A DNA stretch of 13,998 nt from the NCBI GenBank assembly GCA_019056785.1, contig DXJV01000074.1:1-13998 (forward strand), written 5' to 3'. The notes under the pieces were generated by a model. It saw only the letters and a list, made by a program, of their open reading frames with translations. It searched no databases and was not told the DNA's origin. Of this stretch, positions 151 through 11,298 are shown piece by piece. Position 1 is the stretch's first letter. The number at the start of each line of letters is the position of its first letter. The DNA is from Candidatus Heimdallarchaeota archaeon (GTDB lineage: Archaea; Asgardarchaeota; Heimdallarchaeia; JABLTI01). The translations under genes were made by a program, and so were the position numbers.

Positions 151-1893
151 TCATATTTTCCATAAATGTGCTTCAAATGAGTAAAGCTCATCCAAAGGAA
201 CGTACCGAAGAATTTTTTGTCTCACAGTGAATGTTTCAACCTCAAAACCCCGCTCAACAATAAAGTCAGAAAGCATTTTTGCTATTTTATGGTTACTATC
301 AAGGCCCATAACCCTGACAAGCATCCCATCAAATGTGATGTTATACCCTATCCAACTGAATATCGCCAATTGATCTATCAATTTATTGAACTCCGCTGTT
401 TCATTATCACCCTTTATCTTTATAATTAAAAGATCCTTTAACGAAATCACTGACGGCGTTAATACAAGCCTGAAATTAATGAGATCCTTTTCAATGGCCT
501 CATTCCTAAGTTTATTCATAAATGACAGAAAATTTTCGATTTGATTAAAGTCAATGTCATTTTCTTTTAGAAATTCTTGTAGCTCTATACCAAAACCGGA
601 ATAAAGCGAAGGATTTGTTAGGCTGTGTGAGCGGTAAATTGAGATAAATTTTAAGAGTCTTTTTTCATTAAAGGTGAACTTGTGTGGAAGTTCTTCTTGC
701 AAAAAACTATTATTCCATGTTACAAGCTTGATACATTCCTTTTTTCCTTCCAATAATTCCTGAAAACTCTCTATTGTAGGTTTAAAATTCTTTTCAACAA
801 GAGCAGTCATAAAAATTCGATCTTTGAGAGGTTTAATTTCAAAGTAATCGAGAAAGCCTTGGTTTTGTCTTTTTTCCATGCGCTTTTCCAGAGAATTTGC
901 CAAGACGTGGGGGCAAAGCATTAAAGCATAAAAATATCGAGGAGAAACGGGAGAACCTTGGTAAATAATATCAATGTAAGGATTTTCAAGAAGATCTTTT
1001 TCAATAATCTCAGTTGTTTGACGCTTCGATTCTTTTATTTTGATAATGATTGTGTAATAATGTAATCCTAGTTTGTAAAAATTCTTTTCAACCCAAAATT
1101 TTGCATTATGAATATTGGCAAGTTTGACCAATTCTTTTGAAATAAGTGTATAATCGAGATCAAGCAATTGTTCTAGGCTTGATAGAGTAGCACTTATCCC
1201 TTGTTGCAAAATACCTTTTAAAACTTTCAAAGTAATTTTTCGCATTCTAATAGGAGCAATTATTTGCTCAGGTTTGAAACTTAAATAATCATTAAATTGT
1301 TCTAAAATTTCCAATTCTTTGTTAACTATCTCATCAAAATCATTAACAAAAAAGTGAAATGTGTCTAAAATTAACTTAAAAGGAACTTTTTTTGAAGTGA
1401 TTGACACCGAGAGAAAATAGAGAATTTCCAAGAAAGATTTTTTGTTAACCTCAATTCTTTCTTCAGCTTCAAAATATATGAATCGATAGCGAATATTATA
1501 TGCGCGAGAATCAAATTCCCTTCCAAGGTAATTCTGTTGCATTTTACTAAGAGCAACGACATTTAGAATATAGTGTGACAAAGAAAAACTCGGATGGAAA
1601 AGTAACCAATCCTCCATAAAAAAGGCAAGGGCCTCACGAATTAAAACATGTTCCCAGAGGGTTTTTTGGTATGTTTCCGGTGAAAGATCATTAAACCATT
1701 GGCCAAAAGTTATTTTTTTTTTTGTACGAATGACGCCATATGTTGGCCCGAAAGTTGGAGCCTCACCCAAGGTTATTTCAACACTATCTAAATTGCGTTG
1801 TAAGTCCCAATCTGTTTCTTGCTGAATTTCAGCAATTAATGTTTGTAAATGAGACCTAATCTGCTTGGGTGTGAGAGGCTGCTCAAGTTTCAT
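151..1893 (-). CDS. Large Lrp/AsnC-like winged-helix transcriptional regulator with tandem wHTH + RAM/ACT-like modules and an N-terminal extra domain
   Basis: Long ORF; ATG at 1893 (MKLEQPL) is preferred over TTG at 1917. HTH-like TLKVLKGILQQGISATLSSLEQLLDLDYTLISKELVKL is followed by the Lrp-type linker NFYKLGLHYYTIIIKI. A second, degenerate module begins at FTFNEKRLLKFI. Confidence 0.6.
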   Translation of the reverse strand: MKLEQPLTPKQIRSHLQTLIAEIQQETDWDLQRNLDSVEITLGEAPTFGPTYGVIRTKKKITFGQWFNDLSPETYQKTLWEHVLIREALAFFMEDWLLFHPSFSLSHYILNVVALSKMQQNYLGREFDSRAYNIRYRFIYFEAEERIEVNKKSFLEILYFLSVSITSKKVPFKLILDTFHFFVNDFDEIVNKELEILEQFNDYLSFKPEQIIAPIRMRKITLKVLKGILQQGISATLSSLEQLLDLDYTLISKELVKLANIHNAKFWVEKNFYKLGLHYYTIIIKIKESKRQTTEIIEKDLLENPYIDIIYQGSPVSPRYFYALMLCPHVLANSLEKRMEKRQNQGFLDYFEIKPLKDRIFMTALVEKNFKPTIESFQELLEGKKECIKLVTWNNSFLQEELPHKFTFNEKRLLKFISIYRSHSLTNPSLYSGFGIELQEFLKENDIDFNQIENFLSFMNKLRNEAIEKDLINFRLVLTPSVISLKDLLIIKIKGDNETAEFNKLIDQLAIFSWIGYNITFDGMLVRVMGLDSNHKIAKMLSDFIVERGFEVETFTVRQKILRYVPLDELYSFEAHLWKI

Positions 1894-2016
1894 GCTTTGC
1901 ACACTAACTAATAACAAATAAGTAGCTATAAAAAAACTCTCTCTTATATCTTATGGAAAAAGAGCAGAATGAACACATTAGAAATGTTTTTATTTTAGTA
2001 TGTCTAAAATATAATT

Positions 2017-2168
2017 AATCCGTCAGAATTTCTTTGACGGATTCCCTCTCTCCCCACAAATAGACGTTTGTTATTTTTCCAATGAACGTCTAAAATCCCT
2101 AAAATTTCCTTTTCCTGGACGGCTGGGATTCTTCCCCCGTCCAGTTTTAATTCCCCCAAGTGGAGAGA
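2017..2168 (+). ncRNA. Putative structured non-coding RNA (three hairpins plus an enclosing helix)
   Basis: H1 2017-2043 (11 bp including a G-U pair), H2 2061-2092 (12 bp including 2 G-U pairs), H3 2115-2144 (8+4 bp). tctctcc(cc)ac at 2047-2057 pairs with gtggagaga at 2160-2168. The G-U pairs form only on the + strand. A TATA-like tttttatt lies at 1987-1994. Confidence 0.5.
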
Positions 2169-2262
2169 AGGTTTACACATCTCTTCGTAATAGAGTGATA
2201 TATACAGGTAAAAACAGATAGTGTGATTTGACAAATACCCAAAGAATCAGTTTAAACAATAT

Positions 2263-2280
2263 TAAAAAAAAGGGAAAAAA
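2263..2280 (-). terminator. Oligo-T terminator downstream of hsp20
   Basis: The + strand has A-tracts interrupted by ggg, giving T-tracts on the - strand just past the hsp20 stop codon. Confidence 0.5.
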
Positions 2281-2291
2281 GGAGGAGAGGA

Positions 2292-2885
2292 TTATTCTAT
2301 TTTCACTTCAAACTCATCCTTGTCTTTTGATGGTTCCTTTCTTTCAAAGACTATTTCTAAGATACCATTCTTCAAGGAAGCTTTTGCAGTTTTTGGCTTT
2401 ATCTTAACAGACAACTCTTTCTCAGCTTCCAGCTCTTTGCCATTTCTTAAAGCTTTGATTGTTACTTTGTCCTCAGTTGCGGTGATCTTTAGGTCTTCTT
2501 TTTCCACGCCGGGTAACTCCATAATTACTCGTACTGCTTTGTCTTCAATAAATGCGTCAATTAATTGCTCGTCTTCGGGTTGACCAATCATTTGTTCTGC
2601 TGTTCCAAACCCGAAATTCCGTGGGTCGATATTTCCATACTCCTTTACTACTGGCGTTCCATCAGGTCCAATAGTTACAATTCGACCATAATAATAGGGA
2701 CCGAATTTCTTAGTTACCACTTTCCCCTCCTCATTTCCTGCAAACATATTCATGAATTTGTCCATATACTGTTTTATATTTACGAATGGATCGAAATTAA
2801 AGAAGTCTTCATCGAACCAATTAAAGAACGGATAATCATTTCTTTCATCTTTTCTTTCGTTGTCTTTTCTATTTCTCCAGGTCAT
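2292..2885 (-). CDS. hsp20: Small heat shock protein, archaeal Hsp20/alpha-crystallin family
   Basis: Archaeal Hsp20 signature GPYYYG..VTIGPDGTPVVKEYGN, alpha-crystallin core ELPGVEKEDLK...ASLKNGILEI, C-terminal V-K-I (IXI-type) motif. SD GAGGTGA at 2892-2898. Confidence 0.95.
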   Translation of the reverse strand: MTWRNRKDNERKDERNDYPFFNWFDEDFFNFDPFVNIKQYMDKFMNMFAGNEEGKVVTKKFGPYYYGRIVTIGPDGTPVVKEYGNIDPRNFGFGTAEQMIGQPEDEQLIDAFIEDKAVRVIMELPGVEKEDLKITATEDKVTIKALRNGKELEAEKELSVKIKPKTAKASLKNGILEIVFERKEPSKDKDEFEVKIE

Positions 2886-2976
2886 TTTCCATCACCTCTG
2901 GATTATAGGAATAATCCCTCACTTTTTTGTGAATTACTCACTAAAAAGTTAACATTAAAACATTCGTCTAAACAAA

Positions 2977-2992
2977 TATATAAATCCTTCGG
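2977..2992 (-). promoter_or_regulatory. BRE-TATA promoter of hsp20
   Basis: The - strand reads ccgaagga-TTTATATA, which predicts a transcription start near 2954. Confidence 0.6.
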
Positions 2993-3026
2993 TTTAAAAG
3001 TAAAAAAAGAAAAGGGGGAGGAACAC

Positions 3027-4007
3027 TCAACGCAACACGACTTCAATGATATCTTGATCCTCAACGACATGCTCTAAGCCAACTTTTTGTCCATCGAACT
3101 CAACAGAAGAGCCCCAGACACGAGCGAAACGAAAGCGAGTAAGAAAACTACTATGAATTTTTTGGATTGTGTCTTTTATTGTCGCGCCGCGATGTAAAAC
3201 AATTGGTTCATTGAGCCGTGGTTTTTCTCGGGGCGGTTTTGTATAGACTCTGATAATATCTAAGAGATTAAAAAGTGACTTTTTCAGCTCTTCTAGAGAA
3301 GCAGCATTATTTGCCGCAGTGGGAAATACAGGCCAGTCTACCTTTTGAAGTAGTTTTTGGTAAGCCTTTTTCGAACCCGGTAGATCGCCTTTTGTGGCAA
3401 TTACCGCCAATTTATATTTCGACTTGCCGTCTATGAAAATCTTCGCTTCTTCTAATTGATGAATAAGGAAGGTCAATTGTCGATCGATGTCCATTGTTAA
3501 ATCAATCACCATTAGAATGGCATCACAGGTTCGTGCAACACGTTTGATCTGCTTTGCAATAGTCCAATCATCTTTGAAGTCTAAGAATCCCGGTAAATCA
3601 ACAATTTGGAAAGTCACTCCTTGGTATGTACAAGCCCCTGCTTGTCCGATGGTTGTAGTATTAAGATAATTCCCTACTGCAACATCTGTATTTGTTATTG
3701 CATTCATAAGAGTACTTTTACCCACATTAGATAGACCAAAAAGTGCGAGACGCCCGACACCTGACTTTGGGATCTCAAAAGGATCAAAGGTTCGTCCCTT
3801 TACTTTTGGTTTTTTCAGAACTTCAGCTTTCTTTTCTTCAAGCCATTTAATGAGATTTTTATAAGGGCCCCAATCATCCAATTTTTTGCTATGGATTTCC
3901 TCGATTGTTGCATCTGCAGCTTTAATAAATTCCTTACCTTCGACTAATCGCAAACGATTTGCTATTTTATAGAGGAAATAACGATATTTTGTATAACGAT
4001 TTCCCAT
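3027..4007 (-). CDS. DRG-like OBG-family GTPase with C-terminal TGS domain
   Basis: G1 GLSNVGKS, G2 YLNTT, G3 DLPG, G4 TKGD. TGS domain IIRVYTKP...FARVWGSS..FDGQKVGLEHVVEDQDIIEV. SD GAGGTGA at 4014-4020. Confidence 0.9.
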   Translation of the reverse strand: MGNRYTKYRYFLYKIANRLRLVEGKEFIKAADATIEEIHSKKLDDWGPYKNLIKWLEEKKAEVLKKPKVKGRTFDPFEIPKSGVGRLALFGLSNVGKSTLMNAITNTDVAVGNYLNTTTIGQAGACTYQGVTFQIVDLPGFLDFKDDWTIAKQIKRVARTCDAILMVIDLTMDIDRQLTFLIHQLEEAKIFIDGKSKYKLAVIATKGDLPGSKKAYQKLLQKVDWPVFPTAANNAASLEELKKSLFNLLDIIRVYTKPPREKPRLNEPIVLHRGATIKDTIQKIHSSFLTRFRFARVWGSSVEFDGQKVGLEHVVEDQDIIEVVLR

Positions 4008-4269: not shown

Positions 4270-4426
4270 ATTTTAATTAGTTACAATTCACTAATAAAGA
4301 CTTTTTCTTAAATAGAAAAATAATTCACAATCTTCTGAATGTTAAAATAACAATACAGAATTTCAAACATTCATTGTTCAGTATTAAGATTTAAAATCGA
4401 GGATTATCTTTTATTACTCGATTTAA

Positions 4427-5455
4427 ATGCCTTCTAAAAAAGAAACTACTGTTTTATTCATTTGGAAAGTTCGAGAAGAGCTTCAAAATTATTTGCAGAA
4501 CCACTTGTCCAAAAAAAACATCACCTTAATTTTTCCGGAGGAAAATGACCAGCAAATTTTCCTTGAAAATGCCGCAGATGCAAATATTATTGTTGGTTGG
4601 CGGCCGACAGAAGAATTACTAAAAAGAGCTCAAAAACTCGAGTTATTTATCAATCCGGGCGTTGGTGTTCAGCATCTTTTACCTTTATTTCAAAGAGTTG
4701 CTATGGAGCGAGAGGTTGTCCTTTGCAATGGGCATGGGAACACCTATTTTACCGCCCAACATGCTGTTGCATTACTCCTCTCATTGATGAATAAAATTGT
4801 CCCCCACCACAACTGGATGCAACAAGGTTACTGGCGAAAAGGAGATGCTGATGCGAAGACAGTTCCCCTTCGAAAACGGGAGGTAGGGCTTCTTGGGTAT
4901 GGCGCTGTAAATACTAAAGTACATCGATTCCTTGCGGGGTTTGATGTTAATTTCCATGTATTAAAGAAAAACTGGAAACGTAAACGCATATCAACATTGC
5001 CAACGAAAGTTAAGAAATATTCTTTTCAGGATTTAACGGCTTTTTTAATTGCCATTGATATTCTTATTGTAGCAGTGCCATTAACTAGTTTAACACAAGG
5101 ATTAATTGCCAAGAAAGAATTTGCGCTCCTTGGCCCAAATGCTCTCGTTGTTACTGTTGCACGAGGAGAAGTTATCGATGAAAAGAGTTTTTATGAAGCA
5201 CTTAAAAACAAAACCATTGCTGGAGCAGCGATTGATGTGTGGTATAATTACCACCCTGAGCCAAATGCCAAAGGTCGAAAATTTCCTTCCAAATATCCTT
5301 TTTACAAACTGGATAATGTTGTACTTTCTCCCCATCGGGGGGCCTCTCCAATGGATGATTTAGAAAGATGGAATGAAGTTATCGAAAATATTAAACGATA
5401 CACTTCCGGGGATAGAAACTTCCTTAACGTCGTCAATCTCAAAGATGAATATTAA
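4427..5455 (+). CDS. D-isomer specific 2-hydroxyacid dehydrogenase (NAD-binding)
   Basis: Rossmann motif VGLLGYGAVN, AVPLTSLTQGLI, catalytic Arg in VARG, GAAIDVW, and catalytic His in NVVLSPHRG. Confidence 0.9.
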   Translation: MPSKKETTVLFIWKVREELQNYLQNHLSKKNITLIFPEENDQQIFLENAADANIIVGWRPTEELLKRAQKLELFINPGVGVQHLLPLFQRVAMEREVVLCNGHGNTYFTAQHAVALLLSLMNKIVPHHNWMQQGYWRKGDADAKTVPLRKREVGLLGYGAVNTKVHRFLAGFDVNFHVLKKNWKRKRISTLPTKVKKYSFQDLTAFLIAIDILIVAVPLTSLTQGLIAKKEFALLGPNALVVTVARGEVIDEKSFYEALKNKTIAGAAIDVWYNYHPEPNAKGRKFPSKYPFYKLDNVVLSPHRGASPMDDLERWNEVIENIKRYTSGDRNFLNVVNLKDEY

Positions 5456-5494: not shown

Positions 5495-6217
5495 TTATTT
5501 CCAGCTTTTAAATTCGCGAACTTCTGCAACCTTATCTTTGACGATTTTCGGGACTTTCTTCTCTTTCAAATCTTTCAAAGTTATTTTTTTGCTGAAATTA
5601 TAATTTCGACCCTTATATGAGACAGTTATTTGATCTTCAATTTTCACCGTGGGGGTCATCCCAGCTTCTACCGGTTGCGCTTTCGGAGCTTTGGGTTTAG
5701 GTTTAGGTTTTGCAACAACTTTCTTGGAAGGAGCCTTCTTTTGAGTGCCGGCAGCACTACCTACTTTTTTGATTTGCAAGGTTTGTCGTTTCTTCTTTTT
5801 CGCAGAAATCGTTCGTTGTTGAGTTTTTTCAACATCAAATTGTGTTGGAATGGCTTGAATAAATCCTTCTTGTCCTGGGCGATTTGTGATAATGGCATAA
5901 CCTTTTTCTGTACGAATGAGAGCGCCTTTAGTCATTACTTTTCTTCGAGTAAATTCTTTATTTGCAGGATTAGTTTCAACGTCGAGAATCCGGACTTTTT
6001 CAGATTTTTTAGTTTCCGGGTCAGTTAAGTTACAATAATCATATCGATAGGCTCGAAGTTTGAAATTACCACCCATGGTTCGGATTTTCTTGACTCGAGG
6101 TTCACCTATGATTGTTTGTGCTTCTGGTCGTCCGAGTTCAGCTTTTCGTTTTTCGTGGTGCTTTTTCAGTCGCGAGCCACTTTTTGTACGTTTGCTTAGG
6201 CCTTGCCATCGTGCCAT
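5495..6217 (-). CDS. rps8e: 30S ribosomal protein S8e (eS8) with long basic C-terminal extension
   Basis: MARWQGLSKRTKSGSR...KRKAELGR...RTMGGNFKLR...NPAN....RRKVMTKGALI...ITNRPGQEGFIQA is the archaeal eS8 signature. The true start is ATG at 6217, not the upstream GTG used by the ORF track. Confidence 0.95.
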   Translation of the reverse strand: MARWQGLSKRTKSGSRLKKHHEKRKAELGRPEAQTIIGEPRVKKIRTMGGNFKLRAYRYDYCNLTDPETKKSEKVRILDVETNPANKEFTRRKVMTKGALIRTEKGYAIITNRPGQEGFIQAIPTQFDVEKTQQRTISAKKKKRQTLQIKKVGSAAGTQKKAPSKKVVAKPKPKPKAPKAQPVEAGMTPTVKIEDQITVSYKGRNYNFSKKITLKDLKEKKVPKIVKDKVAEVREFKSWK

Positions 6218-6269
6218 TTTTACAACCACTAATAATTCTTTTTTCTTATTCTTTCGCACTTCAAATAGC

Positions 6270-6284
6270 TTTAAAACCTTTGCG
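6270..6284 (-). promoter_or_regulatory. BRE-TATA promoter of rps8e
   Basis: The - strand reads cgcaaagg-TTTTAAA, about 55 nt upstream of the ATG. Confidence 0.55.
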
Positions 6285-6384
6285 ATTATTTCTGTAGTCG
6301 CTCTTTCTAGTTTTTAAAGGAGGTTCTTCAGTTTCCATCCCTCAATTCAATTAATTTCCCACGATAATTTTTTATCAATAACGA

Positions 6385-6825
6385 ATGACTTTTTTAGGAG
6401 GAGGAGATATTAAGAAACAGAAAAAACCGAGAATTTCTCAGGTGGAAAAAACAACATTGTCAGAAAAGCGCACAATAGATTATAATATCCAAAAATTGGC
6501 AGAATCCCTTATTGCTCGTGACCGGAAAAAAGCGCTCTCAATTATCCGTTCACGATTAAATAAGCCATTCGAAAGCAACACCCAACATTTTGTTTGGAAA
6601 GGATGGGAACGCGCACTTGCTCGCCAAGAAAATAATGCACTTATTTTTCAAATGTTAAATGGCATCGAATTTCCAACCATTAAGAAAATCTTCCATGATA
6701 TGAAAAGGAAGAAGACAGAGATTCTGCTCCGAGACCACACACAAACCGCGCTCGCAAAAGAATATCTCCCCACATGGATCTCCCTTCTTGAGATTTATTG
6801 CAACATTTACCAAGATAAACAATGA
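6385..6825 (+). CDS. Hypothetical alpha-helical protein upstream of the origin and cdc6
   Basis: 146 aa ORF filling the gap, with helical amphipathic pattern, followed by a T-tract at 6827-6836. No family recognised; start codon uncertain. Confidence 0.65.
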   Translation: MTFLGGGDIKKQKKPRISQVEKTTLSEKRTIDYNIQKLAESLIARDRKKALSIIRSRLNKPFESNTQHFVWKGWERALARQENNALIFQMLNGIEFPTIKKIFHDMKRKKTEILLRDHTQTALAKEYLPTWISLLEIYCNIYQDKQ

Positions 6826-6866
6826 ATTCTTTTTTTATTCAGCTTACTCACTAATGTTTCCAAAGA

Positions 6867-6887
6867 GTTCCACTTGAAAAAGAGGTC
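6867..6887 (+). promoter_or_regulatory. ORB-like origin recognition box 1
   Basis: gTTCCActtGAAAaAGaGGTC matches the archaeal ORB pattern TTCCAnnnGAAA plus a G-containing tail, and is 16/21 identical to box 2. Confidence 0.75.
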
Positions 6888-6931
6888 AGTAAATTTTAAA
6901 TATGAATACCGTTATAAGAAAAATGACAAGA

Positions 6932-6952
6932 ATTCCAGTAGAAATAGCGGTC
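6932..6952 (+). promoter_or_regulatory. ORB-like origin recognition box 2
   Basis: aTTCCAgtaGAAAtAGcGGTC, a direct repeat of box 1 located 65 bp downstream and directly upstream of cdc6. Confidence 0.75.
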
Positions 6953-7038
6953 TTTCCACTATTTACTGAAATATATAATCAAGTCTCTAAAGAAACGCAA
7001 GAACGATTAAGAAACCGTAGGAGATAAGAAGAAAATAA

Positions 7039-8274
7039 ATGTCAGATCACCCACTCGACGCAATATTCGACAGATTCATTTCTAGCCCGAGTATTTTTAA
7101 GAATCACGAAGTACTGCGACCAAGCCATATCCCAGATAAACTCCCCCACAGGGATTATGAGATACAATTTTTGGGAAAAGCCCTCGGAAGTGCTTTGAGG
7201 AACAATCGTCCTAGCAATATTTTCCTCTATGGGAAAACGGGAACCGGAAAAACCATTGTCTCAAAATACGTGACGAAATATCTACAAGAGCGAGCAAACT
7301 CAATCGGAAAGAATATCATTGTGTCTCTTCTCAATTGCGTGGAGATTGACACAGACTACCGAGTGTTAGCTCGATTATGTGATCTCATTGGAGAACCAGT
7401 GCCATTTACTGGCCTTCCTACAGACGAGGTTTTTCAACGTTTTAAGGCAAAGTTGGACTCGAAAAAACAATTACTAATCGTCGTATTTGACGAATTAGAT
7501 AAACTTCACCAAAAAAGCGGAGATAATGTCCTATATCAGCTAACAAGAATCAATACAGACCTAAAAAAAGCTCAAGTTTCTTTAGTTTGTATCACAAACG
7601 ACCTTTCTTTCAAAGAAACACTCGACCCAAGGGTGCGGTCCAGTCTTTCGGAAGAAGAATTGGTCTTTAAACCATATAACAGCTTACAACTTGAGGATAT
7701 CCTTGCAGAAAGAGCGAAAGAAGGCTTTCATGAGGGCGTCTTAACGGAGGGAGTGATAAGCCTTTGCGCAGCCTTAGCGGCACAAGAACATGGGGATGCA
7801 AGACGTGCATTAGATCTCTTACGTGTAGCGGCTGAAATCGCAGAAAGGGAAAACGAATCGAAAGTCTTACAGTCGCACGTCCGCAAAGCTTCTAAGCAAA
7901 TCGAAAAAGATACGATTCAAGAGGCACTAATCTCCTTGCCGGTTCAGACTAAGCTCGTTCTTTGGGCTGTGTATGTTCTTGAAAAAAGTACACTTAAGGT
8001 AATTACAACTGGTGACATTTACAAAGTCTATCTCGAACTTTGCAAAACAACTGGTTTGGATCCCATAACACCTCGCAGGGCCAACTCCTTATTAAATGAA
8101 CTATCAATGCTGGGGGTTGTGAATACAAAAGTTGTCAGTATGGGCCGTTACGGCCGTACAACAAAAGTATCGCTGTCAGTTTCCCCAAGACAGACCCGGA
8201 ATATTCTTTGCGAAGATTTCTACATAAAGAAAGTTTCAGACTTTAACGCTCAAACTTTGCTTGGAAAAGACTAA
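7039..8274 (+). CDS. cdc6: Orc1/Cdc6 replication initiator (Orc1-1-like)
   Basis: LPHRDYEI, Walker A GKTGTGKT, Walker B FDELD, LDPRVRSSL, HGDARRALDLLR, C-terminal wHTH with wing GRYGRT. Confidence 0.97.
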   Translation: MSDHPLDAIFDRFISSPSIFKNHEVLRPSHIPDKLPHRDYEIQFLGKALGSALRNNRPSNIFLYGKTGTGKTIVSKYVTKYLQERANSIGKNIIVSLLNCVEIDTDYRVLARLCDLIGEPVPFTGLPTDEVFQRFKAKLDSKKQLLIVVFDELDKLHQKSGDNVLYQLTRINTDLKKAQVSLVCITNDLSFKETLDPRVRSSLSEEELVFKPYNSLQLEDILAERAKEGFHEGVLTEGVISLCAALAAQEHGDARRALDLLRVAAEIAERENESKVLQSHVRKASKQIEKDTIQEALISLPVQTKLVLWAVYVLEKSTLKVITTGDIYKVYLELCKTTGLDPITPRRANSLLNELSMLGVVNTKVVSMGRYGRTTKVSLSVSPRQTRNILCEDFYIKKVSDFNAQTLLGKD

Positions 8275-9228: not shown

Positions 9229-11298
9229 ATGGTTTCTGATACAACCGACCCAGTTGCGGCGTATAATGAATTCATCCGAGAATTTCGAGATGAAGAAGGC
9301 AATTTCAAGTACCGACAAAAAATACAGGAAATGACAGTCCAGGGCGGCATTTCGTTAACGGTAGATTTTAATGATGTCATCAAATTTAATCCTGAACTAG
9401 CTCGAAAAACAATTGATGAACCAAAAGAATTCCTCGAGGCAGGAAACCGCGCAGTTGCTGAAGTGGTGGAGATTGAAGATTCAGATTATGCATTTACCAC
9501 TCGAGACTTTTTCCTTCGCTTTTATAATCTGGCAGAAAGTGAAACAATCCCACTTCGAAGCATTAGATCTGAACATGTAGGCAAATTGATAATGTTAAAT
9601 GGGATTATTACTCGAGCAACAGTAGTAAAACCATTATTAGTGGAAGGGTTCTTCCAATGTTTAAATTGTAATGAAATAATGATTAAAGCACAAGAAGAAA
9701 GGCGGTATAACCCTCCTCATCACTGTGAAAACCCCGGTTGTGGGAGAGCTGGCCCATTCAAACTTTTGATTGAAGAATCCAAATTTATTGATTGGCAAAA
9801 AGTCACCATTCAAGAACGACCGGAGGATCTGCCACCCGGGCAGATGCCACGTTCAGTAACTGTAATGCTAACAAACGATCTTGTTGATACTGTCCGACCT
9901 GGAGATCGAGTTTCTGTGATAGGTGTCTTGCGCTCCGCACCTGATTTCTCACAAAAAAGCTCGGGAAAATTGGCAACTTTTCATGTAGCAATGGATGCTA
10001 ATAACATTGTTCCAGAGGAACAAGAGTTTGACACAATCGAAATTACGGAAGAAGAAGAAGCAAAAATACTCGAGTTGTCAAGAGACCCTTGGATACACAC
10101 AAAAATATTCGAATCAATTGCGCCCTCAATTTATGGAAACGAGGAGATAAAGAAATCAATTGCTCTCCTTCTTTTTGGCGGCATCCCAAAAGTTTTACCA
10201 GACGGTTTGAAGATACGGGGAGAAAGCAATATGCTTATGATTGGTGACCCTGGAACCGCCAAGAGTCAGATATTACGATATGTTGCTACTTTGGCTCCTC
10301 GAGCACTTTATACCTCAGGAAAAGGAACCTCTGCTGCAGGATTAACAGTAGCAGTTTTACGGGATAGCGACACAGGCGAATTCACCCTTGAAGCAGGAGC
10401 ACTCGTCTTAGCCGATAGAGGGATTTGCTGTATTGATGAAATTGATAAAATGCGAAAAGAAGACCGCAGCAGTATTCATGAAGCTTTGGAACAAAGAACG
10501 GTCTCAGTTGCAAAAGCAGGTATTGTTGCCACATTAAATGCCCGCTGTTCTATAATTGCAGCTGCAAATCCGAAATTCGGTCGGTACATTACCTCAAGAA
10601 GCGCAGCAGAAAACATTAATTTACCTGTCACTATCCTCTCGAGATTTGATCTCATTTGGATTGTACGTGACGAACCAAAAACAGAATCTGATCAAATTAA
10701 AGCACAGCATATTTTACGCCTACACACTGCAGGAGTAGCAGAAAAAGAACCTCCGATTGACAAAGACCTTCTAAGAAAATACATAAGCTATGCCAAATTG
10801 AATTCTCATCCTCGTTTGGGTGAAGAAGCGGCAAAAAGACTAGAAGAGTTTTATCTAGAAATGCGAAAAGCCGGCGAAGCAAGTGACTCTCCCATTGCTA
10901 TTACTGCCCGTCAGTTAGAATCACTAATACGGCTGACAGAGTCGCATGCAAGAATGGCATTACGCAATGAAGCATCAATTGAAGATGCAGAAGCAGCAAT
11001 TTCTCTCCTCAAAGAATCACTCCGGCAAGTAGGAATTGACCCAGAAACCGGAAAAATAGATATAGATGTCGTAATGGTAGGCACATCGTCTTCTACAAGA
11101 TCGAAAATTGAAACTCTAATGGATATTATAAGCGAATTGGAAGCCGAAAATCAAAATAAAGCGGTACCAATGGAAAAAATCATCGAAAAGGCTGCAGAAT
11201 TCGGTATGAAAAGAGACTTTGTCGAGAGAAACATTGAACGAATGCGACAAGACGGCATGCTGTTCCAACCACGAGCAGGATTCATCAAGAAAACATGA
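9229..11298 (+). CDS. mcm: MCM replicative helicase
   Basis: Zinc finger CLNC-x18-CENPGC, Walker A GDPGTAKSQ, Walker B IDEIDKM, arginine finger SRFD, sensor-2 TARQLESLIRL, C-terminal wHTH, no intein. ATG at 9229 preferred as start. Confidence 0.98.
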   Translation: MVSDTTDPVAAYNEFIREFRDEEGNFKYRQKIQEMTVQGGISLTVDFNDVIKFNPELARKTIDEPKEFLEAGNRAVAEVVEIEDSDYAFTTRDFFLRFYNLAESETIPLRSIRSEHVGKLIMLNGIITRATVVKPLLVEGFFQCLNCNEIMIKAQEERRYNPPHHCENPGCGRAGPFKLLIEESKFIDWQKVTIQERPEDLPPGQMPRSVTVMLTNDLVDTVRPGDRVSVIGVLRSAPDFSQKSSGKLATFHVAMDANNIVPEEQEFDTIEITEEEEAKILELSRDPWIHTKIFESIAPSIYGNEEIKKSIALLLFGGIPKVLPDGLKIRGESNMLMIGDPGTAKSQILRYVATLAPRALYTSGKGTSAAGLTVAVLRDSDTGEFTLEAGALVLADRGICCIDEIDKMRKEDRSSIHEALEQRTVSVAKAGIVATLNARCSIIAAANPKFGRYITSRSAAENINLPVTILSRFDLIWIVRDEPKTESDQIKAQHILRLHTAGVAEKEPPIDKDLLRKYISYAKLNSHPRLGEEAAKRLEEFYLEMRKAGEASDSPIAITARQLESLIRLTESHARMALRNEASIEDAEAAISLLKESLRQVGIDPETGKIDIDVVMVGTSSSTRSKIETLMDIISELEAENQNKAVPMEKIIEKAAEFGMKRDFVERNIERMRQDGMLFQPRAGFIKKT

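Follow-up and report, generated by a model that had tools for sequence, protein, structure and literature searches.

The stretch of DNA analysed here (hereafter the window) comprises positions 1 to 13,998 of contig DXJV01000074.1, forward strand, from the assembly GCA_019056785.1 of a Candidatus Heimdallarchaeota archaeon, whose genome (2.87 Mb, 38.6% G+C) is 82.5% complete; a near-identical locus is contained in GCA_021498085.1. A 374-nucleotide (nt) gap between two genes that both lie on the - strand carries a set of three hairpins, which very probably belong to a real small RNA (sRNA) that is structured, transcribed independently and a member of a new family, as judged from comparison with related genomes. 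We refer to this RNA and its orthologs as type A, in distinction from its paralogs. The elements of the predicted RNA gene are listed below with the basis of each assignment, followed by the two flanking genes; model R2, named there, covers the 3' module that the RNA shares with its paralogs.

1980-1994, + strand: predicted archaeal promoter, a purine-rich AGAAAT resembling a B recognition element (BRE) followed by the TATA box TTTTTATT (1987-1994); ortholog conservation.
2017-2043, + strand: H1, 5' terminal hairpin, with the predicted 5' end of the RNA near 2017; fold and covariation.
2044-2060, + strand: linker 1, unpaired C-rich CCCUCUCUCCCCACAAAU, including the family-wide invariant CCUCUCUCCCC; ortholog and paralog conservation.
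2061-2092, + strand: H2, internal hairpin, specific to type A and absent or different in paralogs; fold and covariation.
2093-2114, + strand: linker 2, AAAAUCCCUAAAAUUUCCUUUUCC, the 5' part of the shared 3' module; alignments A7 and A8 and matches of model R2.
2115-2144, + strand: H3, 3' hairpin CUGGACGG...CCGUCCAG, core of the shared module and likely terminator hairpin; fold and paralog covariation.
2145-2175, + strand: U tract (2145-2148) and semi-conserved tail UUUUAAUUC...GG...(U)AGGUUU, containing the predicted 3' end of the RNA.
151-1917, - strand: divergent neighbour (P0001), gene for a protein of 580-588 amino acids (aa) whose start faces the RNA; likely start ATG at 1893-1895.
2292-2885, - strand: Hsp20-like gene (Pfam HSP20, E 1.8e-8), convergent and not part of the RNA.

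The promoter-like motif that the initial annotation had pointed out ahead of H1 is borne out by the orthologs. In all of them the TATA box (TTTTTATT, with an invariant TTTTTA(T/A)) precedes the AAUCC at the opening of H1 by 21-23 nt, and the sequence of the spacer in between is not conserved. An invariant TATA box held at a fixed distance, with variable sequence between it and H1, is the mark of an archaeal promoter and places the predicted start near 2017. The same distance and position recur in every type A ortholog, and types B and C have the same layout; a second TATA-like run at 2006-2015 occurs in this species only. BLAST detects the intergenic stretch in one genome of a sister genus and in five of the same genus (71-81% identity), and two closer relatives were reached via homologs of the neighbouring protein. 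At the closely related locus L153, where the neighbouring protein is 61% identical to that of the window, the promoter (92.5% identity) and the RNA body (2017-2156, 96.5%) are far better preserved than the upstream flank (67%) or the downstream spacer (41%). The tight conservation stops near 2156, and the motif GUUU(U)AAUU after H3 is conserved across types. The 3' end of the RNA is predicted, with some uncertainty, to lie between 2148 and 2176, which would give a transcript of about 135-160 bases.

The three strong hairpins proposed at the outset (2017-2043, 2061-2092 and 2115-2144) were all recovered. The + strand of 2010-2175 folds at -58.6 kcal/mol, compared to -30.3 +/- 3.2 kcal/mol for dinucleotide shuffles (z -8.9; none of 200 shuffles equalled it). 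Energy alone cannot assign the strand, because the - strand folds well too (z -6.2). Covariation was assessed in an alignment of 10 type A orthologs fitted to model R1, in which 95.1% of the helix cells are in standard pairs and compensatory double changes occur at 13 of the 30 pairs. Not one of 500 shuffled controls reached the observed pairing values, a statistic that overstates independence, given the small number and close kinship of the relatives; when the 3' partners are shifted by 1-3 columns, pairing falls to 37-51%. Compensatory changes beyond both shuffled and slid controls, as observed here, are those of a structured non-coding RNA gene.

The individual hairpins contribute differently. 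H1 (9 modelled pairs, 6 with double changes, 91.6% of cells paired) has its stem almost completely replaced across species, from CCGUCA/UGACGG to CCGACAAAA/UUUUGUUGG. In H2 (10 pairs, 5 with double changes, 93.8% of cells paired) the stem AGACGUU/AACGUCU gives way to AAACACCU/GGGUGUUU, CAUCUAU/AUAGAUG, GUAUCAAUUCU/AGAAUUGAUAC or AAACACC/GGUGUUU, and in three genomes (G009, G005 and G011) the stem sequence is wholly replaced. H3 is nearly invariant inside type A and covaries over the paralog types (GGACGG/CCGUCC, GACGGGGGC/GCCCCUGUC with G·U pairs, GAGAGA/UCUCUC), with double changes at 7 of 12 pairs. Among the 10 orthologs, 32 G·U cells stand against 5 A·C cells, and the pairing of 95.1% read as + strand compares to 85.8% read as - strand. 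The G-U pairs had been taken from the window alone to favour the + strand, and by these comparisons the + strand is indeed the RNA strand.

Reading the element on the - strand instead, as an RNA or as a 76-aa open reading frame (ORF) at 2004-2234, is highly improbable. Besides the good fold, such a reading could draw on a TATA-like TATATAT near 2200 and on a counterpart of the ORF with 42% identity in one relative. The TATA-like site, however, lies within a poorly conserved spacer, the ORF is missing from the other orthologs, whose indels are not multiples of three, and both the lower pairing and the conserved TATA box with its spacing indicate the + strand. The ORF was rejected as a gene on the ground that it is not kept in orthologs. 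The promoter, the boundaries and the covariation argue together for a discrete + strand sRNA with its own promoter, as originally suggested.

Two features that had stood out in the single sequence fared less well. A GACG:CGUC core was thought to recur in each stem; it is conserved in H3, whereas H1 and H2 are species-specific and have other sequences in relatives. A long-range helix proposed to close H2 and H3 into a junction does form in the window (2045-2057/2160-2171) and in the nearest relative (-15.1 and -14.1 kcal/mol, respectively), whereas the other 8 aligned sequences, the close L153 among them, reach only -3.5 to -8.9 kcal/mol. Neither the repeated GACG units nor the junction-closing helix is thus conserved as a design feature.

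What is conserved most strictly lies between the hairpins. Of the UCCC motifs noted after the hairpins, those behind H1 (GAUUCCCUCUCUCCCC) and H2 (AAAAUCCCUA) are the same in every type A ortholog, and the one behind H3 varies among relatives (UUGCUUGCUU, AAAUCUUUC). Linker 1 as a whole is invariant in type A and is common to types B, C and D as AUCCCAUAAACCUCUCUCCCC; of 9 orthologs and partial copies that were folded, 7 are predicted to leave its CCUCUCUCCCC unpaired, and this sequence constitutes a conserved unpaired C-rich segment of the kind found in C-rich-seed sRNAs. In linker 2, CCUUUUCC is kept in all 12 aligned copies of types A-C, with slight variation in weaker copies of the module. 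Some 40 nt of unpaired sequence are almost the same in paralog types B, C and D and in different species, and it is only the hairpins that vary. The alignments support that the invariant pyrimidine-rich segments UCCCUCUCUCCCC and AAUCCCUA...UUUCCUUUUCC stay unpaired between the hairpins.

The paralogs surfaced during a search for targets of linker 1. Its supposed complement GGGGAGAGAGG upstream of AUG on contigs C60 and C93 had to be rejected as a target, for it is the opposite strand of paralogous sRNA genes. These two genes form a pair of types B/C, each with its own TATA box, a different 5' hairpin, CCUCUCUCCCC and the 3' module:

C60:58700-58860 (= L154:3997-4151), - strand: paralogous sRNA gene.
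C93:15014-15145 (= L155:4015-4145), - strand: paralogous sRNA gene.

Their neighbours are a PrsW protease and a response regulator in one case and AMMECR1 and a Mut7-C RNase in the other. The architecture common to all types begins with a TATA box, a spacer of about 22 nt, a type-variable 5' hairpin and the unpaired AUCCCAUAAACCUCUCUCCCC; type A has AUCCCUCUCUCCCCACAUAAAC at this position, followed by the extra hairpin H2. The 3' half consists of an A-rich spacer, (C/U)UCCCUUUUCC, hairpin H3 and GUUU(U)AAUU or another U-rich tail. The 5' hairpins of the paralogs likewise covary within their type (e. g., GAGGUUUGG/CCAAACCUC versus GAGGUUAUGGU/ACCAUAACCUC). Upstream of type B sRNA genes we also observed a conserved inverted repeat, TTCCGC(N)AAAAAA(N)CGGAA, about 50 nt ahead of the TATA box (L188 ~9230-9260 and L190 ~5300-5330, both - strand, as well as L169 and L166), which may serve as a binding site for a regulator or may terminate the gene before it.

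The distribution of the family is narrow. Model R2 matches three copies in this genome and 1-7 copies each in 10 of 11 other genomes of the same family, compared to 1 of 71 genomes from other Heimdallarchaeia families (G044) and none of 149 in a phylum-wide sample of other Asgard genomes. The outlier G044, a metagenome-assembled genome (MAG HMA_bin2.96) classed in another family, has two matches on contigs of 4-6 kb (L013:1-147 and L016:4120-4267). Both contigs begin 17 nt before CCCUCUCUCCCC and share the RNA through CACUAGGYUUA, after which they diverge; they represent either two gene copies or two strains, and they may be misbinned. Type A is single-copy and syntenic across species, beside the same protein gene. 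A pattern scan of metagenomes with CTCTCTCCCC N35-65 TTTCCTTTTCC returned low-complexity chance matches, and among the matches listed, model R1 fitted 0 of 80 loci at the pattern site. That the RNA resembles no recognised family also agrees with Rfam 15, which gave no match at gathering scores in the whole window and no family over 1950-2250 even at E values up to 10 (best 21.5 bits versus a threshold of 60), and a full-text literature search found no description of Heimdallarchaeia sRNAs. These results support a previously undescribed, lineage-specific sRNA family found in one Heimdallarchaeia family; it comprises three or four types of paralogs at the least, and the RNA of the window represents type A.

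The 3' module is not restricted to sRNAs. In G005, G006, G007 and G009, copies without 5' hairpin or linker 1 directly follow the stop codons of same-strand genes, and the TATA box and Shine-Dalgarno (SD) sequence of the next gene come after them. The module-bearing genes include those for FG-GAP/TSP3 and LVIVD-repeat surface proteins, a MarR-like protein and a GNAT acetyltransferase. The genes are organised in arrays (L187 at G006:C77:75500-86500, L188 at G005:C94, L189 at G007:C238 and L190 at G009:C14), within which every gene has behind it a nearly identical ~70-nt module (CUCCCUUUUCC, hairpin, U-rich tail) and which are headed by an sRNA-type unit carrying the same module subtype as the messenger RNAs (mRNAs) of the array. 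The genome of the window has the module three times, each time as part of an sRNA-type unit with promoter and 5' hairpin. Because the module in relatives also follows mRNA stop codons, and with H3 being followed by U3-U5 in all types in the manner of a hairpin-plus-U-tract terminator, H3 and its flanks look like a shared 3'-end (terminator) module. In this genome, moreover, CCCTCT, TCCCTT and CCCTTTT are about 2-fold commoner on the sense than on the antisense strand downstream of stop codons, and C is mildly enriched just before U tracts (22.8% vs 17.2%); as hints of a link to termination, these values are suggestive and no more.

Such a layout of alternating ORFs and modules is reminiscent of integron cassettes, the difference being that here each gene appears to have its own promoter. 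Integron attC R''/R' core sites (RYYYAAC...GTTRRRY) were not evident in the arrays by eye, no dedicated search for core sites or integrases having been made. One may nevertheless ask whether linker 2, H3 and the tail are simply a genomic repeat or terminator cassette, similar to a miniature inverted-repeat transposable element or a recombination site, that was copied behind a promoter, with the transcript as a by-product and no function in trans. We consider this unlikely. The module is indeed repeated within genomes and near-identical inside a locus, it follows unrelated same-strand ORFs in the arrays, and the two contigs of MAG HMA_bin2.96 break inside the unit. On the other hand, a cassette would hardly account for a type A gene kept in single copy and synteny, for the strong constraint, including compensatory changes, on the parts outside the module (promoter, H1, linker 1 and H2), or for the fact that this genome's three copies are all sRNA-type. 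As a separate observation, two LVIVD-repeat genes (L189 ~4310-4330 and ~5765-5785) start with UUAUGGGAUUGAAA, which over 10 nt is perfectly complementary to AAUCCCAUAA in the type C sRNA at the head of their array; a third such gene (L187) has no complement, and the match could be chance or a local target.

Other window genes encode ribosomal protein S8e, an Orc1/Cdc6 protein, a DRG-type GTPase and the Hsp20-like protein (Pfam scan). The identity and the orientation of the gene downstream of the RNA vary among orthologous loci, and the RNA is therefore not the leader of a conserved gene. Read on the - strand, 2260-2291 of the window contains AUCCUCUCCUCCUUUUUUCCCUUUUUUUU 3' of the Hsp20-like gene, a C/U-rich sequence ending in U8 that is probably a terminator and resembles the sRNA linkers in composition.

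The divergent neighbour is a far more constant companion. A homolog lies upstream and divergent at every orthologous RNA locus with enough flank, directly adjacent in six loci and about 0.8-1.8 kb away, with inserted genes included, in G003, G005 and G007; in G010 two tandem paralogs of the protein were observed (L011:3580-5346 and 5954-7789). The protein evolves far faster than the RNA (29-44% amino acid identity vs 71-81% nucleotide identity by BLAST). For its 588 aa, no Pfam family was matched by sequence search, phmmer found no solved structure, and a profile search returned just a weak match to LrpA (E 0.13). An AlphaFold model built with nine homologs (predicted local distance difference test 85.8) was more informative: Foldseek retrieved NirDL (E 7e-7), and about 20 Lrp/AsnC regulators at probability 1.0, and structural neighbours in the ESM Atlas carry HTH_AsnC/HTH_24. 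NirDL is a fusion of two Lrp/AsnC-like modules. In the model, residues ~220-588 fold as two tandem Lrp/AsnC-like modules, each with a winged helix-turn-helix and a RAM alpha-beta sandwich and most alike to NirDL, and the N-terminal 200 residues are helical plus a small sheet. The RNA accordingly lies divergent from a regulator-like gene, as first proposed, in that the C-terminal two thirds of this conserved 580-aa protein resemble regulators by predicted structure; it is a probable DNA-binding protein. Control of the sRNA promoter by this protein is a plausible proposal. The paralogous RNAs sit in unrelated gene contexts.

The proximity of a putative regulator raises the question of whether the hairpins are not RNA structures at all but palindromic DNA operators for this very protein, given that the unit adjoins its gene and that the inverted repeats are intergenic. 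Several observations make this extremely unlikely. The stems change freely with pairing kept (13 double-change pairs) and loop lengths vary, so that the conserved half-site and fixed spacing of Lrp/AsnC operator palindromes are not found, and the conserved linkers are non-palindromic. A strand asymmetry of G·U pairs has no meaning in duplex DNA. Paralogs of the same architecture stand beside unrelated genes, and a conserved TATA box precedes the elements at the distance typical of a transcription start.

How might such an RNA act? In the mechanism that we favour, H3 and the U tract would define the 3' end by acting as a terminator, the hairpins at both ends would stabilise or protect the RNA, and the unpaired C-rich segment would act in trans by base pairing with purine-rich (GGAG/GGGA, SD-like) stretches of mRNAs, with the sRNA promoter possibly under control of the divergent tandem Lrp/AsnC-like protein. 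Our preference follows the example of bacterial sRNAs with a UCCC motif and of paralogs that share a seed, such as Qrr; we put the probability of base pairing at roughly 45%. The organism does use SD sequences, as indicated by G enrichment at -15 to -8.

A number of observations weigh against base pairing or blur its outline. Genome-wide duplex scans with linker 1, linker 2 and the paralog seeds, carried out in one genome, gave no excess over reversed or shuffled seeds, and sites complementary to the C-rich segment of type A are not enriched at start codons in this genome. The best start region (C47) is just G-rich, and 16% of shuffled type A seeds pair as well. The complement of linker 1 (GGGGAGAGAGG) differs from the SD consensus of the genome (GGAGGUGA-like). 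An unpaired stretch of ~40 nt is long for a seed, and a protein or ribonucleoprotein partner would fit equally well; linker 2, found also on mRNA 3' ends, may for that reason be part of the terminator and not a seed. The loop of H2 (2078-2082) contains U5 (UUAUUUUUCC), with U4-U5 in other species, and archaeal RNA polymerase might partly stop there to yield a shorter species of ~65 nt. Furthermore, a search for sequencing runs that carry the locus (window 1700-3200) yielded DNA metagenomes from marine and hydrothermal sediments and no RNA run, and the RNA ends are predictions. Folding the whole sRNA against the start regions of the window genes yielded only long-loop artefacts. The complement of the conserved stretch (GAGAGAGGUUUAUGGG) was also tried as a generic SD-plus-start and rejected, since the SD of this genome lies at -15 to -8 and not at -7.

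The same sRNA gene could alternatively work by binding protein, its unpaired UCCC/CCCU and CCUUUUCC motifs titrating a pyrimidine-specific RNA-binding protein for which the sRNA competes with module-bearing mRNAs. Candidates would be an Sm-like protein or a protein with KH domains, for instance aCPSF1, a factor of 3'-end formation and termination. Poly(C)-binding proteins use their KH domains to recognise C/U-rich tetranucleotides, and the two KH domains of archaeal aCPSF1 bind terminator U tracts. The near-constancy of the ~40-nt stretch beside variable hairpins would suit such a role, as would the occurrence of the same linker 2 and H3 on mRNA 3' ends of relatives with a matching subtype in the sRNA at the array head, the sense-strand excess of CCCTCT, TCCCTT and CCCTTTT after stop codons, and target scans that produced no base-pairing target. 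Then again, the partner is a hypothetical candidate, the k-mer enrichment is modest and would fail correction over all 6-mers, the enrichment of C before U tracts is small, and type A conserves just two UCCC motifs, far below sponges of the Csr/Rsm type. We regard protein titration as a tentative possibility that ranks just behind base pairing and is nearly as likely. The conserved unpaired C/U-rich segments fit both protein titration and SD pairing, the two functions named in the initial annotation.

A more specific version, rather unlikely as it stands, is that the invariant pyrimidine stretch and H3 form a recognition element of a lineage-specific 3'-end or termination machinery (e. g., the KH domains of aCPSF1), with the paralogous sRNAs being decoys that tune termination or 3'-end processing of mRNAs from the surface-protein arrays. 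If true, this would add an RNA-based layer of control on transcription termination in the archaea closest to eukaryotes.

Whichever mechanism applies, the regulatory RNAs of Asgard archaea are almost unexplored, and the family provides an example that is backed by covariation, has a defined promoter, occurs as several paralogs in a genome and is built around an invariant, pyrimidine-rich core that stays unpaired. The 3' module common to sRNAs and mRNAs hints at how transcripts end in this lineage. The family moreover represents a concrete set of RNAs to seek in metatranscriptomes and enrichment cultures of Heimdallarchaeia and a candidate for a new Rfam entry. Since it is narrow (one archaeal family) and its function is still at the stage of proposals, the impact will be moderate unless it can be tied to 3'-end formation or translation control.

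Among known systems, archaeal guide sRNAs of the H/ACA and C/D box classes are of similar size, and an ACA triplet follows linker 1 here (CCCCACA). H/ACA RNAs with up to three hairpins exist. An H/ACA guide was rejected, however, as minimum-free-energy and consensus folds give three continuous stems without pseudouridylation pocket, K-turn/K-loop or tandem G·A, and the ACA lies 14 nt after H1; a C/D box sRNA was rejected, too, with neither RUGAUGA nor CUGA present within 2017-2175. Sponges of the CsrB/RsmZ type likewise repeat short unpaired motifs in a multi-hairpin RNA, the difference being that here UCCC and CCUUUUCC lie in linkers, in 2-3 copies per RNA, instead of GGA in loops.

With regard to its 3' end, the RNA invites comparison with archaeal terminators, which rely on U tracts and are assisted by aCPSF1/FttA: H3 is likewise followed by U3-U5, and in relatives the module immediately follows stop codons and precedes the promoter of the next gene. 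Most archaeal terminators described so far consist of U tracts and little else. To our knowledge, a conserved ~70-nt module in which a fixed CUCCCUUUUCC precedes a covarying hairpin and which mRNAs and sRNAs have in common has no prior description, and our literature search found none of such a 3' module.

The closest functional parallels are bacterial. The C-rich-motif sRNAs (RsaE and other 'UCCC motif' sRNAs of Staphylococcus, RoxS of Bacillus) are likewise stand-alone RNAs of 100-160 nt with unpaired UCCC/C-rich segments and a hairpin plus U tract at the end. Their C-rich motif pairs with G-rich SD regions. The RNA described here differs from them in lacking sequence or model similarity (Rfam), in belonging to another domain of life with a TATA/BRE promoter, and in that SD pairing is a proposal for which the scans gave no specific target. 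We know of no Hfq-type chaperone system established for this archaeal lineage. In its organisation, finally, the heimdallarchaeial family, although unrelated in sequence, resembles Qrr1-5 of Vibrio and OmrA/B, which likewise comprise several unlinked paralogs per genome that share a long invariant unpaired region and a terminator and differ in their 5' hairpins.

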